Virus record (IMG/VR): IMGVR_UViG_2778261570_000023
Source: a virus
Lineage: Duplodnaviria > Heunggongvirae > Uroviricota > Caudoviricetes
DNA: 3,722 bases
Strand: one strand, 5' to 3'
The notes beneath the pieces were generated by a model. It made no database searches, was not told the DNA's origin, and worked only from the letters and a program-made list of their open reading frames with translations. Positions 1 to 3,722 of the stretch are shown here, piece after piece (the stretch's first letter is position 1; each line of letters starts with the position of its first letter). Position numbers and translations under genes: made by a program.

Positions 1-1242
1 ATGGCACGAAAAACCACCCCACTAACTATTACGGAGATCAAAAACGCACGACCAGGGGAAAAGGAATACACCCTGCAGGATGGTGGAGGATTATTTCTTC
101 TGGTGAAACCCTCCGGATCAAAAATCTGGCGTTTTACGTACTACCGCCCGGCAGATAAAAAACGGACTATCATCAGCCTCGGATCGCTGAATGATGTTTC
201 CCTGTCCGATGCCAGAGAACGACGGAATGAATACAGGTCACTCATAGCGAAGGGAGTTGACCCACAGGACCACGAACGCCGGAAACGTGAAGCAGAGAGT
301 CGGAAAAAGGGCAACACGTTCGAAAAAGTTGCCTCGGACTGGTACGAGATGAAAAAAGGCCAGAATCTGGCTTACAACACGATTAAGGATATCTGGCGAT
401 CCCTGGAAAAATACGTATTCCCGTACATCGGAAACACGCCAATAGATACCCTCACAGCTCGCCGCTTTGTTGAGATACTCACACCCATTAAAGCACGCGG
501 CAACCTGGAAACCCTGAAACGCGTTTTACAACGCATCAATGAAGTGATGGATTTTGCTGCCAACAGTGGGCTGATTGACATCAACACCGCCGCGAACGTC
601 CGCAAGGCATTCCCCTCACCCACCAAAAAGCACATGCCAACCATCCGACCGGAACAGCTACCGCAGCTAATGCACGATTTATCGGTCGCCAGCATAGAAC
701 GGCAAACCAGATTGCTGATTGAGTGGCAACTGCTGACCGTAGCACGCCCAGCCGAAGCAGCCGCCGCACGCTGGGAAGAAATAGATCTCGATGCCGAAAC
801 CTGGACGATTCCAGCCGGACGCATGAAGATGCGCCGTGACCACGTGATCCCCCTTTGCGGTCAGGCGATGGCTGTACTGGAAACCATGAAGCCAATCAGC
901 GCACACAGGGAACATGTTTTTCCCAGCCTTAAAAATCCAATGCTGCCAATGAGCAGCCAGACCGCTAACGCTGCATTGCGCCGGATGGGTTACGCTGGTG
1001 TGCTGGTGTCTCACGGATTACGCGCCATATTCAGTACAGCAGCGAACGAGGAAGGATTCGAGCCGGACGTAATCGAGGCCGCACTCGCACACGTGGACAC
1101 AAACGAGGTAAGGCGAGCATATAACCGAAGTAACTACCTGGAAAAGCGCGTGGTGCTTATGCGCTGGTGGGGGGAATTTGTAGAGGCCGCAGCAACCGGA
1201 GTGACCATAGCCAGCGGTAAAAGGGGTATCCGTGCCGTGTAA
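1..1242 (+). CDS. int: Site-specific tyrosine recombinase / integrase, P4 (IntA/CP4-57)-like family, 413 aa, apparently full length
   Basis: ORF spans frame 1 from an ATG at position 1 to a TAA at 1240-1242. The N-terminus (MARKT.PLT..EIK......Y.L.DG.GL.LL.K.SGSK.W.F.YYRP) recalls E. coli CP4-57 IntA and P4 Int. The C-terminal catalytic region has an R box (TVARPAE), the H-x-x-R box (HGLR, codons 1012-1023), a second His (LAHVD) and candidate catalytic Tyr in VRRAYNRSNY (Tyr codons 1120-1122 and 1135-1137). Length matches IntA (413 aa). Upstream context (int promoter, att site, tRNA) lies outside the window. Confidence 0.93.
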   Translation: MARKTTPLTITEIKNARPGEKEYTLQDGGGLFLLVKPSGSKIWRFTYYRPADKKRTIISLGSLNDVSLSDARERRNEYRSLIAKGVDPQDHERRKREAESRKKGNTFEKVASDWYEMKKGQNLAYNTIKDIWRSLEKYVFPYIGNTPIDTLTARRFVEILTPIKARGNLETLKRVLQRINEVMDFAANSGLIDINTAANVRKAFPSPTKKHMPTIRPEQLPQLMHDLSVASIERQTRLLIEWQLLTVARPAEAAAARWEEIDLDAETWTIPAGRMKMRRDHVIPLCGQAMAVLETMKPISAHREHVFPSLKNPMLPMSSQTANAALRRMGYAGVLVSHGLRAIFSTAANEEGFEPDVIEAALAHVDTNEVRRAYNRSNYLEKRVVLMRWWGEFVEAAATGVTIASGKRGIRAV

Positions 1243-2126: not shown

Positions 2127-2228
2127 CTTCGACACAAGCTACACGTTATCCCCAACGCATGAGCATCACTAACAATGCCACATTTGCGGCTGGTGGGCAA
2201 AGCGTAACCGGAAAAAAATTCCGGTGGG

Positions 2229-2711
2229 CTATTTTATCTTGTGCTGTCGTAGGTAACGTCTCACACCTGGTATTTTTTCGCCAGTATCGGGGTTAATAGC
2301 TTGAATTTTTTTATCGTACAAATCTACTCTAACTATTTTCCCATGTTCGTTTTTTCCATAAACATACTCTAACTCAGGGAAATAGTGAGAGGCGTGAAGA
2401 AAATAGTTGTGTTTTAAATTTGCATATTCAAAAACTAACTTAGCATCAACACATATATATTTGTGACCGCCATGAATATCCATATAAAAATGATCTTCGT
2501 GTGTTGTTATTCGTTTTTGTTTATTAACAGGATTATCAGATGATTCCTTTCTCTCTTCATACAACTTAGCCCGTTCGGCCTCTTCTTGTGCAATTCTTCT
2601 GGATGCCTCGGCTCTAATTTTGTCGTGTGAATTTTCTGAAATAAATAATTTGGTAAGAACGTAAATGGATAAAATTACGATCGCAATGAAAATGACGAAT
2701 CCCATAATCAT
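2229..2711 (-). CDS. Membrane-anchored protein of unknown family, 160 aa: N-terminal single TM helix, charged Ala/Glu/Arg-rich linker, His/Tyr-rich C-terminal domain
   Basis: Minus-strand ORF with stop TAG at 2229-2231. Favoured start is ATG 2711-2709 (MIMGFVIFIAIVILSIYVLTKLF...), preceded by AGGAG at 2720-2716 with a 4-nt spacer; a second in-frame ATG lies at 2705-2703. The ORF track extends it to an ATG at 2759 (adds MSQPEELRLQRLHRRL), which has no SD but sits 9 nt after the upstream stop. Residues 3-22 are strongly hydrophobic. AT-rich coding sequence. Confidence 0.75.
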   Translation of the reverse strand: MIMGFVIFIAIVILSIYVLTKLFISENSHDKIRAEASRRIAQEEAERAKLYEERKESSDNPVNKQKRITTHEDHFYMDIHGGHKYICVDAKLVFEYANLKHNYFLHASHYFPELEYVYGKNEHGKIVRVDLYDKKIQAINPDTGEKIPGVRRYLRQHKIK

Positions 2712-2734
2712 TAATCTCCTATGTAATCTTTGGA

Positions 2735-2757
2735 GTCGCAACTCCTCTGGTTGCGAC
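2735..2757 (-). promoter_or_regulatory. Intergenic stem-loop between the RHH gene and the membrane-protein gene
   Basis: Perfect 8-bp inverted repeat GTCGCAAC (2735-2742) / GTTGCGAC (2750-2757) with a 7-nt loop. It lies between the RHH stop (2769-2771) and the AGGAG/ATG of the downstream gene. No U-tract follows on the minus strand, so it is not a canonical terminator. Confidence 0.3.
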
Positions 2758-2768
2758 ATTAGTGATAG

Positions 2769-2963
2769 TTATCCCTTTGGCTCAATTCCGCGCCGTAACA
2801 GTTCTTTGCGCCCTAACTCTTTAAGCCAGTTGGCAAGACTTACTCCATCGTTACTGGCTTCGTTATCAAACTGCTCCTTCAATTCAGGGACTATACGCAT
2901 ATGGAATGGTGGGGCCTTTCCTGTGCCTTTTTGTTTTTTATCGCGCTTAATAACTGTTGACAT
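2769..2963 (-). CDS. Arc/Mnt-like ribbon-helix-helix (RHH) DNA-binding protein, 64 aa, with Lys-rich N-terminal tail
   Basis: Minus-strand ORF from ATG 2963-2961 to TAA 2771-2769. Translation is MSTVIKRDKKQKGTGKAPPFHMRIVPELKEQFDNEASNDGVSLANWLKELGRKELLRRGIEPKG. The segment PPFHMRIVPELKEQFDNEASNDGVSLANWL follows the Arc/Mnt pattern (P.F..R.P.E.......A...G.S.N..L). Weak SD GGTG 6 nt upstream. The track's longer 102-aa version begins at a TTG (3077) and is not favoured. Confidence 0.7.
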   Translation of the reverse strand: MSTVIKRDKKQKGTGKAPPFHMRIVPELKEQFDNEASNDGVSLANWLKELGRKELLRRGIEPKG

Positions 2964-3022
2964 GTGTACACCTATAGCGTTATGTTTTGGTTCGTTAGGT
3001 GTACACCTTAACACGTGTACAT
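2957..3022. promoter_or_regulatory. Divergent control region with three GTGTACAC-type palindromes (putative operators) and a candidate rightward promoter
   Basis: Palindromes: GTGTACAC at 2964-2971 (overlapping the RHH start codon), a perfect 12-bp AGGTGTACACCT at 2997-3008, and a degenerate ACACGTGTACAT at 3011-3022. Centres are about 35 bp and 16 bp apart. Candidate plus-strand promoter: -35 TTGACA (2957-2962), 18-bp spacer, -10 TATGTT (2981-2986). I could not confidently place the leftward promoter. Confidence 0.4.
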
Positions 3023-3102
3023 CAAAAAACGCAACGCCCCGCAGTGGTGGCACACATGCAGGGCGTCTAACCACCAACGATAACGAGAGTATCGAGGTAG
3101 CT

Positions 3103-3306
3103 ATGAGAAATCATACCACACACCCGCAAGGGCGGGACTCGCACAACCTGAATAAATATATCTGGCGTTTTATCGCCCTGAGCACGGCACAACCGCGCGT
3201 GATTACCATTGAGGCCACCAGCGAACAGGAAGCACGCCAGCAATCCCCGGCTGGCTGCGTGATGGTATTCGCCGCCCGTATTCGTCAGGAGGTGCGCCAT
3301 GATTAA
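3103..3306 (+). CDS. Small conserved island/prophage protein, 67 aa; resembles from memory the Icd-like (host cell division inhibitor-like) small proteins annotated in P4-like elements
   Basis: ATG 3103 preceded by GAGG (3094-3097, 5-nt spacer); stop TAA 3304-3306. Translation MRNHTTHPQGRDSHNLNKYIWRFIALSTAQPRVITIEATSEQEARQQSPAGCVMVFAARIRQEVRHD. The family name is recalled, not searched, so it is low confidence; that it is a real coding gene is moderately confident. Confidence 0.6.
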   Translation: MRNHTTHPQGRDSHNLNKYIWRFIALSTAQPRVITIEATSEQEARQQSPAGCVMVFAARIRQEVRHD

Positions 3307-3511
3307 CCTGTCACTTACTGACCTTAACCGCATTCAGTTTCGTGAGAAATTTACCGGGCAGCTACTGGTCAATGTGGATAAAGGCCGCGTGGTGTGTAAT
3401 TACCACCTGCCAGATGAAGCAATTGTCGCAACAAGGGAATCATTACAGGAACTCGCAGAGCGTGCCGGAATGATTAACGCGAATATTCAGGGGGTGAGAC
3501 ATGTGCAATAA
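3299..3511 (+). CDS. Hypothetical small protein, 70 aa, translationally coupled to the upstream gene
   Basis: ATG 3299 preceded by a strong AGGAGG (3287-3292, 6-nt spacer). Start overlaps the upstream stop by 8 nt. Stop TAA 3509-3511. Translation MINLSLTDLNRIQFREKFTGQLLVNVDKGRVVCNYHLPDEAIVATRESLQELAERAGMINANIQGVRHVQ; no family recognised. Confidence 0.65.
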   Translation: MINLSLTDLNRIQFREKFTGQLLVNVDKGRVVCNYHLPDEAIVATRESLQELAERAGMINANIQGVRHVQ

Positions 3512-3722
3512 AAGCACGCCGGACGCAGCCGCCGAAGCTATCAGAACGCTGATGCACGCGCTGATTGATATTTCTGTTATCGCAGACAAGGCGCATAAGT
3601 ACGCCACCAGCGAAACAGAATATGCCGGGGCTTTCGTTCCTCACTCACTGGCTGTTATGCAATTTAGTGCTGATATGGCACTGAATGAGGCTAAAGCCAT
3701 CCTGATTGCTGATTGTGAAAAT
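3501..3722 (+). CDS. Hypothetical protein, 5' partial view (first 74 codons), continues beyond the window end
   Basis: ATG 3501 overlaps the upstream gene by 11 nt, with a G-rich SD-like GGGGTGAG at 3491-3498. The frame is open through 3722 with no stop (MCNKSTPDAAAEAIRTLMHALIDISVIADKAHKYATSETEYAGAFVPHSLAVMQFSADMALNEAKAILIADCEN...). It is absent from the ORF track, apparently because no stop falls inside the window. Confidence 0.55.
   Translation, partial: MCNKSTPDAAAEAIRTLMHALIDISVIADKAHKYATSETEYAGAFVPHSLAVMQFSADMALNEAKAILIADCEN

Follow-up and report, generated by a model that had tools for sequence, protein, structure and literature searches.

Extra genes that lie between two genes adjacent in relatives, and that bring with them their own terminator and a deviant base composition, are the morons of Hendrix and colleagues. 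The gp15 protein of HK97, a single-pass membrane protein, blocks DNA entry, and in lambda the defence genes rexA and rexB are co-transcribed with the prophage repressor. The subject of this report is a low-GC block in a 3,722-nt stretch of viral DNA, here called the window (position 1 is its first letter), from the IMG/VR record IMGVR_UViG_2778261570_000023 (Duplodnaviria; Heunggongvirae; Uroviricota; Caudoviricetes). Comparison with E. coli genomes identified the window as the left end of an 8.85-kb phage satellite of the phage-inducible chromosomal island (PICI) type beside tRNA-Pro, and the block is very probably a discrete, swappable single-gene cassette in a bounded slot of that satellite. 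The one gene of the cassette, called the cargo in what follows, lies directly downstream of a gene for a small ribbon-helix-helix (RHH) regulator. The loci with which the window was compared carry L numbers, and relatives of the cargo protein carry P numbers where they need to be told apart.

Several features of the locus are those of a moron. A single gene is present or absent between collinear elements, the interval being 32 nt in L017 versus 568 nt here; its GC content is lower (0.356 versus 0.504 in the rest of the window); hairpins flank it; and its product is predicted to be a small inner-membrane protein. A relative of the cargo in a Serratia phage (L014) is likewise moron-like, as a reverse-oriented inserted gene. 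Unlike in morons, no promoter of its own was detected in a consensus scan, and the cargo seems to ride on the transcript of the regulator. When it was compared with the known exclusion proteins, the cargo had no sequence similarity and no significant fold similarity to them. The geometry also resembles that of rexAB, with an accessory gene directly after a repressor-like gene and on the strand opposite the lytic or replication operon. The differences from rexAB are that the repressor role of the RHH protein is read solely from allele-specific palindromes, that the co-transcription is proposed, and that there is no homology to RexAB.

The satellites themselves have well-described relatives. Gram-negative PICIs have an integrase gene at a specific attachment (att) site, alpA, and a primase gene with an origin, in an organisation described previously (PMC6092414, PMC10085698). 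Immune genes in PICI accessory regions are already known (PMC11364771), as are the rapidly swapped hotspots of P4 and P2 (PMC9122126, PMC13586616). The locus in the window is like the accessory (immune) regions of PICIs (PMC6092414, PMC10085698, PMC11364771) in its int-alpA-...-primase order at an att site, in the variable position between regulator and replication genes, and in the small genes, without a part in the satellite life cycle, that are swapped between lineages with common left halves. It is unlike them in that its occupant is no described immune system, and the slot can be set more finely here than in the literature: directly downstream of the divergent RHH gene and bounded by an invariant element of 21-39 nt. 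With the P4/P2 defence hotspots (Rousset et al. 2022, PMC9122126; PMC13586616) it shares conserved flanks, rapidly swapped content, and carriage by satellites of Enterobacterales, but the satellite family and the position are different, and where those hotspots hold many recognisable multi-gene systems, the slot has only one tiny gene or two, with no recognised defence domain. Close homologues of the P4/P2 defence genes have not been found in PICIs or capsid-forming PICIs (PMC13586616). That a phage satellite has an accessory gene of low GC is, in itself, expected, and an ordinary instance of a known phenomenon. What is new is the base-level definition of one E. coli PICI accessory slot, together with direct evidence of single-gene cassette swapping between diverged satellites.

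The Cassette and Its Slot

The boundaries of the cassette were obtained by aligning the window with 14 related loci by pairwise BLAST, with breakpoints taken from eight comparisons. On the left, homology breaks at 2200-2205 in L002, L016, L017, L018 and L023, and on the right it restarts with the RHH stop codon, exactly at 2769, in L007 and L008, and at 2774 in L023. These recurrent breakpoints define a minus-strand cassette of 568 bp at 2201-2768, so that alignment with related islands, which the preliminary description of the window had put forward as the way to map the variable segment, located both of its edges. Where the RHH allele differs too (L002, L003, L024), homology is back only at about 3018-3026. 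Judging by these alignments, the variable segment can exceed the low-GC block, with the RHH gene and its operators (2769-3017, GC about 0.45) exchanged as well.

To the left of the cassette, a conserved spacer at 1975-2200 is common to different backbones, the homology to L004-L006 and to L018 spanning it from 1975 to 2200. Its right end is the invariant element (2162-2200), whose core, CCACATTTGCGGCTGGTGGGC at 2178-2198, has no mismatch in L002, L004-L006 and L016-L018, very different backbones included. The spacer also contains a leftward terminator hairpin on the minus strand (1979-2006, -20.4 kcal/mol, z = -4.5, then UUUUU). Within the cassette, right after the cargo stop codon, is another hairpin (2207-2225) with the 7-bp stem ACCGGAA/TTCCGGT, which folds at -12.2 kcal/mol (z = -3.65) on the minus strand and at -13.7 kcal/mol on the plus strand, the plus-strand form being terminator-like and followed by CTATTTTATCTT. 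At the cassette's other end, the 57-nt spacer between the RHH stop codon and the cargo start has a minus-strand hairpin of its own (2735-2757, GTCGCAAC...GTTGCGAC, -13.1 kcal/mol, z = -2.2), which has no U-tract and is therefore not a canonical terminator.

No direct or inverted repeats flank 2201-2768, and the junctions share no motif beyond the backbone itself. Since there are neither flanking repeats nor recombination sites, homologous recombination in the conserved flanks is the simplest mechanism, and presumably the one by which the exchange occurred. Two other origins were considered and rejected. An integron-type gene cassette would be accompanied by features that are absent at 2201-2768, i.e., an attC-like site or flanking repeats. 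The idea that an RHH-cargo module had split an ancestral long icd gene was hinted at by a 'partial Icd-like' coding sequence (CDS) that PGAP places at 1967-2200. The sole 'intact' long CDS of this kind that was seen (L024, 266 aa, 1493-2293), however, runs antisense over an unannotated 60-aa RHH open reading frame (ORF) with its own operators and is probably an annotation artefact; the partial CDS derives from this doubtful 266-aa model.

Across the 14 loci, the slot between 2200 and 2769 was found in five states. Besides holding the cargo, it is empty in L017 and similarly so in L024. In L002 (5205-5440), L016 (2162-2403) and L018 (3227-3462) it holds a conserved 58-aa ORF with the motif …RFAPC.FALE.FLKE.R.K…, which lies downstream of YlcI-type RHH genes and is missing from the annotation of all three genomes. 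A gene for a 118-aa SWIM zinc-finger protein takes its place in L003, L007 and L008, and two small ORFs, one with a hydrophobic N-terminus, are present in L023. The cassette itself is rare: it occurs in 16 of 5426 E. coli genomes, in every case at 99% identity or more, and the frame is intact in all 16 and in Salmonella. In comparison, about 1669 E. coli genomes have the icd region, at least 215 have both flanks, and the cassette is missing from about 99% of the satellites with the same flanks. In a 60-row sample, no genome had the two flanks contiguous.

That the cassette has a history separate from its surroundings is seen directly in the eight loci that share it. In these, it has 0-5 mismatches in 529-568 nt, versus 2-20% in the aligned flanks (Fisher p from 3e-3 to 2e-34). 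In L004-L006, it sits in a second backbone, which differs in int and AlpA, carries genes for BRO-N and a RepA helicase, and has capsid, decoration and TerS genes of its own; homology to the window starts there only at 1975. In L005, the cassette is 98-100% identical and the adjacent RHH gene is a different allele (46-76% nucleotide identity per 50-nt bin, 57% identity for the protein). In L007, the converse arrangement is found: an identical RHH protein (WP_001306492.1), followed by the SWIM gene in place of the cargo. The recurrent breakpoints, the alternative occupants and the low mismatch of the cassette together show lateral exchange independently of GC, and at the level of these alignments they demonstrate recent movement of the cassette, both from one diverged satellite backbone to another and from one RHH allele to another.

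A second AT-rich cargo position was observed right after alpA, on the plus strand, in L007 (2392-3213) and L008 (2664-3485). Its occupants are a 273-aa protein without a family in L007 (GC 0.33) and a DUF2971 protein in L008 (GC 0.31), the latter with a weak match to the PADLOC model PDC-S31 (E 1e-4).

Base Composition of the Block

It was the base composition that had first set this block apart, as the preliminary description reported a sharp drop in GC at 2281-2711 from hand counts on 60-nt blocks. The computed values are 31.7% (2281-2340), 40.0% (2341-2400) and 21.7% (2401-2460) inside the cargo gene, and 48.3% (1-60) and 66.7% (721-780) inside the integrase gene; all five hand counts were within 2 points of these. 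Over the whole of 2281-2711, GC is 33.4%, versus 48.1% for the entire window. An unconstrained maximum-likelihood segmentation with two boundaries placed the low block at 2293-2731, with 32.1% GC inside versus 50.3% outside and a gain of 26.2 nats. On a coarser grid the gain was 25.2, a value reached in 0 of 200 trials of either kind, the maxima being 10.6 for 200 mononucleotide shuffles and 19.8 for 200 shuffles of 60-nt blocks. The drop is thus real, and an absence of difference between the block and its flanks was not what the computed profile gave.

The block matches one minus-strand ORF (2229 to 2711 or 2759, according to the start codon), with a GC content of 0.34-0.35, a GC content at third codon positions (GC3) of 0.29-0.31, and one at second positions (GC2) of 0.27. 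In L001, a locus near-identical to the window, none of the other genes among the 28 annotated in a 27.7-kb neighbourhood is as AT-rich as the cargo gene; in this neighbourhood, GC3 is 0.48-0.64 in host genes and mostly 0.40-0.63 in the remaining island genes. The left transition had been placed by eye near the 3' end of the gene, and the computation agreed, putting it at about 2271-2293, within that 3' end. It falls some 70-90 nt inside the comparative boundary at 2200/2201, because AT-richness is lower in the last ~20 codons, those of the conserved C-terminal motif.

How much of the deficit has to do with the protein, and how much with codon choice, was assessed by codon resampling, in which eleven neighbouring genes supplied the codon usage for 10,000 re-encodings of the cargo protein. 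The re-encoded gene had 43.1 ± 1.3% GC versus 34.2% observed (z = -6.7), and the integrase, as a control, had 52.7% expected versus 53.0% observed. Of the 16 points of deficit, ~7 reflect amino-acid composition (I 10.6%, K 10%, E 8.7%, Y 6.9%) and ~9 reflect synonymous usage, i.e., the codons are AT-biased beyond the amino-acid effect. GC alone is insufficient as proof of a different history, about half of the deficit being amino-acid composition.

The same tendency is seen around the cargo relatives, with GC values of 0.42 versus 0.54 for the surroundings in the Serratia phage, 0.30 versus 0.40 in L015, and 0.47 versus 0.51 in L011, and the other slot occupants are likewise AT-richer than the backbone (GC 0.36-0.47). 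Since most relatives and the other occupants are AT-rich, AT-richness looks like a property of this cargo class rather than a donor fingerprint. The low GC would be explained by a protein rich in K, I, E, Y and N in combination with the AT-biased synonymous usage typical of a mobile accessory gene pool. No donor genome was identified for the cassette; every relative found was in Enterobacterales, and the readable contexts were satellites or a phage. The original idea of a variable slot filled from a different donor is supported in its core: the breakpoints, the occupants and the mismatch contrast bear out a variable slot with DNA of a different history, and no donor could be named. The compositional contrast is a correct flag for a mobile cassette, not the fingerprint of a particular donor.

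The Cargo Protein and Its Relatives

The cargo gene (2229-2711, minus strand) encodes a protein of 160 aa, or of 158 aa with the start at 2705. The distance from an AGGAG ribosome-binding site (2716-2720) is 4 nt to the ATG at 2711 and 10 nt to that at 2705. Because the homologues begin at the transmembrane helix, one of these two starts is favoured over that chosen by PGAP at 2759 (176 aa), which, on the strength of the alignment, is unlikely. The label 'membrane protein', given to the product from the start, was upheld by a single N-terminal hydrophobic helix, for which the Kyte-Doolittle mean over 19 residues is 2.94 at residue 1. In the protein's layout, this transmembrane helix (~3-23) is followed by lysines, then by a variable charged helix (~29-59), and finally by a small beta-barrel domain (~71-160). 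The homologue alignment shows the conserved domain to be ~90 residues long and to end in HPxTGERIPGIKRYLRQ. AF2 modelling gave a pLDDT of 80 for the full-length protein and of 92.7 for the domain only, with a pTM of 0.82 (9-sequence alignment). The topology of the C-terminal domain is like that of SH3-like small beta-barrels (Tudor, KOW, PWWP, Sm/Rpp29, WYL), with which 48-60 residues could be superposed at 2-2.5 A.

Relatives of the protein proved to be scarce. A word-indexed search of 5.8 billion proteins returned only the cargo's own cluster (90%), with members from E. coli and Salmonella Newport, and an exhaustive HMMER search of 1.84 billion representative proteins found nine members of the family, among them full-length relatives that are 30-45% identical and alike in conserved motifs, with 15 invariant columns. 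There were none in 185,579 GTDB species-representative genomes and none by tblastn in phage and plasmid collections, scans of IMG/VR and JGI metagenomes returned identical copies only, and a literature search on the accessions of the cargo protein found nothing. Relatives at 23-45% identity adjoin the int-alpA genes of other satellites in L011, L013 and L015, and those in L011 and L013 are also downstream of a YlcI-type RHH gene. The contigs with the relative P0003 (L009, L010) are too short for its context to be read. Taken together, the models and alignments indicate that the cargo is a real, folded, membrane-anchored product of a very rare and mostly satellite-borne family. One metagenomic relative, P0009 (267 aa), has two tandem C-terminal beta-barrel domains behind a single transmembrane helix.

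The RHH Regulator and the Control Region

The gene upstream of the cargo (2769-2963, minus strand) encodes an Arc-like RHH regulator of 64 aa, matched by the Arc-like repressor PHROG 228 (E 2.4e-5) and weakly by HicB (Pfam, E 0.009) and TraJ (NCBIfam). The cargo follows it directly on the same strand, and the 57-nt spacer between them has no U-tract terminator. On its other side is a divergent control region (2957-3021), in which a promoter scan found a sigma-70-like rightward promoter, TTGACA-18-TATGTT (2957-2986). The RHH start codon overlaps the -35 hexamer of this promoter-like site, and three GTGTACA(C) palindromic repeats, at 2964, 2999 and 3015, overlap the rightward promoter.

Comparison of the RHH and operator regions of the window (2769-3021), L003 (5614-5900), L005 (9541-9880) and L024 (about 1760-2000) revealed that the operator covaries with the RHH allele, different palindromes occupying corresponding places: GTGTACAC accompanies the allele of the window and L023, GTACGTAC that of L003 and L005, and GGTACGTACC that of L024. 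Such pairs look like exchangeable immunity specificities, and they suggest that the RHH protein could be the repressor of the icd-primase operon in Gram-negative PICIs, a class of satellites for which the 2018 PICI paper called the existence of a repressor 'unclear' (PMC6092414). The independent assortment of RHH and cargo and the allele-specific palindromes together argue for the RHH protein as a satellite regulator and against its being a dedicated antitoxin of the cargo, which rides downstream of it.

Proposed Role and Competing Explanations

Based on these findings, we propose that the low-GC block is an accessory cassette of the moron type (2201-2768), self-contained and with a single gene, in a defined PICI slot. 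A leftward transcript that starts in the divergent control region would carry both the RHH gene and the cargo, and the hairpins at 2207-2225 and 1979-2006 would terminate it. The cargo would therefore be expressed in the resident state of the satellite, much as rexAB in lambda is expressed together with cI. The positive-inside rule would put the beta-barrel domain in the cytoplasm, tethered to the inner membrane, where it might bind a phage or host component. Interference with infecting phages, by superinfection exclusion or abortive defence and to the benefit of both the satellite and the host, would be the most likely function of the cargo.

A number of observations weigh against this proposal. 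The consensus scan found no minus-strand promoter-like site within or upstream of the cassette. The cargo has no family match in Pfam, PADLOC, PHROG or NCBIfam beyond noise (E of at least 0.02). The alternative occupants of the slot are no established defence genes: no recognised anti-phage system was found among them, and their PADLOC matches were weak, partial and to candidate models only, as in the case of the SWIM protein and PDC-S62 (E 1e-4). Finally, the relative in L013 is not AT-richer than its neighbours (GC 0.417 versus 0.407 for int). In view of these points, we give the explanation as a whole, i.e., cassette, expression, topology and phage interference, slightly better than an even chance, and the assignment of a phage-interference function to the cargo, taken separately, is tentative and falls somewhat short of an even chance.

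Two competing explanations deny that the block is an accessory gene at all. Were it not a functional gene but an AT-rich remnant, or regulatory or structural DNA with a chance frame, then the single 90% cluster in the search of 5.8 billion proteins and the lack of any family annotation would be easily understood; the relatives at 30-45% identity with their 15 invariant columns, the domain pLDDT of 92.7, and the frame kept intact in all 16 E. coli genomes and in Salmonella have practically refuted this, and we give it next to no weight. Very improbable, and already largely refuted, is the explanation of the low GC as a mere by-product of a membrane protein rich in lysine, isoleucine and tyrosine that is encoded by an ordinary resident gene. 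The re-encoding to 43.1% GC, by which ~7 of the 16 points are indeed due to amino acids, and the GC2 of 0.27 are what it would predict, but the observed 34.2% is 6.7 standard deviations under the expectation in a test that the integrase control fits, GC3 is 0.29-0.31 versus 0.52-0.62 in the neighbours, and the gene is absent from about 99% of flank-sharing satellites and far less diverged than its flanks.

Other explanations accept the gene and differ over what it does. The RHH protein and the membrane protein might be a toxin-antitoxin (TA) or abortive-infection pair, in which the cargo would be the toxin, the RHH protein the antitoxin and autorepressor, and the low-GC block simply the toxin half. 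The layout, in which an effector gene follows an RHH gene on the same strand after a short spacer, is classic for type II systems, the RHH protein has its weak HicB-family (E 0.009) and Arc-like matches, the cargo relatives in L011 and L013 also follow an RHH gene, and both 'HicB' and TA modules are listed among PICI accessory genes (PMC13612085). We nevertheless find such a pair quite unlikely, as the partners do not stay together: the same cargo accompanies a 57%-identical RHH protein in L005, an identical RHH protein accompanies the SWIM gene in L007, and both RHH types occur with nothing downstream (L017, L024). The RHH alleles covary, moreover, with palindromes over the promoter of the icd-primase operon, and the cargo has no toxin-family match in Pfam, NCBIfam or PADLOC. 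The cargo might, alternatively, serve the life cycle of the satellite (the timing of helper lysis, the entry of satellite DNA, or induction) and not host defence. PICIs are known to encode helper-interference functions (PMC6092414), most of the five relatives with a readable context adjoin the int-alpA regulatory end of satellites (L011, L013 and L015 among them), and PADLOC revealed no similarity to catalogued defence proteins. On the other hand, the two backbones that carry the cassette differ in replication and packaging (D5 primase and no capsid gene in one, RepA helicase plus capsid and TerS in the other), the cassette is missing from about 99% of satellites that are similar in other respects, and one relative is in a Serratia phage. 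These last points argue for a dispensable accessory gene and not a life-cycle gene, and a life-cycle role is in our judgement unlikely.

The proposal of a moron-type cassette with a phage-interfering cargo has a more ambitious form, in which the cargo is a new single-gene anti-phage system specific to PICI-type satellites and expressed from the transcript of an unrecognised RHH immunity repressor, and the position after the repressor is a general 'moron dock'. We consider this form rather doubtful; if it were true, about 1700 E. coli genomes could be searched at the dock for additional defence genes of very small size. In any case, the landmarks of the slot can be used as bait in the roughly 1700 icd-carrying genomes, to give a catalogue of tiny satellite genes of the kind missed by domain-based defence finders. 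The cargo, from a very rare and mostly satellite-borne family with a confidently predicted fold, is a candidate for phage exclusion, and the covariation of RHH allele and operator bears on the repressor question in Gram-negative PICIs.

The Satellite Element

The rest of the satellite is known from L001, in which the integrase gene starts 210 nt past tRNA-Pro and the island lies between yejM and yejO. The ends of the island are marked by a 26-nt direct repeat (25 of 26 matching), the copies of which are 8851 nt apart. Its genes, in order, are int, the gene for a 76-aa ORF, alpA, the cargo and RHH genes on the opposite strand, an Icd-like gene, small ORFs, and genes for a DUF4222 protein, a D5-type primase, ssb and a DUF1441 protein. 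The primase, outside the window, has D5_N, Pox_D5 and DUF5906 domains, and directly after its gene is a pair of 21-nt repeats, TTATGGAATAACTGTTCACCA and TTATTTATGAACTGTTCACCA, at 18294 and 18368 (18294-18388 overall, 74 nt apart), which is consistent with the iteron-type origin of E. coli PICIs (PMC6092414). Made up of int, alpA, small ORFs, primase, ssb and DUF1441 genes alone, the island has no tail or lysis genes and no full structural set. Judged from its genes, it has several features that characterise PICIs: an integrase and att site with direct repeats, AlpA beside int, a primase with repeats, and a size of 8.85 kb, within the usual range of about 8-15 kb. SatelliteFinder includes packaging and capsid-redirecting genes (terS, capsid morphogenesis) among its core components; the DUF1441 gene is the only candidate for such a gene in L001, and its product may be TerS-like, given that a DUF1441 gene precedes the large terminase gene in the phage of L011.

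Within the window, the tyrosine integrase (1-1242, plus strand, 413 aa, GC 0.53) has the Pfam domains Arm-DNA-bind_3, Phage_int_M and Phage_integrase (E 1e-24 to 1e-27). It is followed on the same strand by the 76-aa ORF (1341-1571; WP_001181703.1 in L001 and L002), which is conserved with this integrase backbone and had no match in Pfam, PHROG or NCBIfam, and by the gene for a 68-aa AlpA-family regulator (1741-1947, Pfam Phage_AlpA, E 4.5e-8), AlpA being the master activator in Gram-negative PICIs (PMC6092414). To the right of the control region, the rightward operon begins with the Icd-like protein of 67 aa (3103-3306, plus strand; NCBIfam phage_ICD_like, E 1.4e-19; PHROG 6196, E 3e-46) and continues with two conserved satellite ORFs on the plus strand (3299-3722), PHROG 340 at 3299-3511 and PHROG 2512 from 3501 onward, the latter cut by the end of the window.

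Between the 76-aa ORF and alpA is a near-perfect palindrome (1635-1676) with 20-nt arms, AAAAACAGTACCCACCGTTT/AAAGGGTGGGTACTGTTTTT, and A/T runs on both sides, which by its form resembles a terminator that acts in both directions. When the window was scanned with Rfam for an immunity RNA of the C4/CI type near icd, the only match was a sub-threshold one to STnc240 at 1597-1678 (27.5 bits versus a gathering threshold of 55, E 0.4), which overlies this palindrome. The alpA gene is also bracketed by a 21-nt inverted repeat (18 of 21 matching, 1523-1543 and 2178-2198), one arm of which is the element at the edge of the slot and the other of which is within the 76-aa ORF. It was set aside as a feature, being restricted to this integrase backbone and not conserved in others, and may be due to chance or specific to the backbone.

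Satellites with the cassette or its relatives were also seen inside prophages. The element of L004-L006 (about 6500-17000) lies between phage head-tail joining genes and baseplate V, the satellites of L007 and L008 (int at 909 and 1180, respectively) come directly after a truncated CDS for a phage major capsid protein, and that of L011 (int 2218-3450) abuts phage genes for a ClpP protease, portal and terminase; in such cases the satellite would have structural genes of a prophage as its target. L016 (NZ_CP148328.1, 1-10790) was deposited as a 10,790-bp circular 'plasmid', pZ1323HEC0475-3, and is a complete PICI-like element with int, alpA, YlcI, Icd-like, DUF4222, primase, ClpP-capsid fusion and DUF1441 genes; this circle is probably an excised satellite assembled as a replicon, and gives a hint of excision only.

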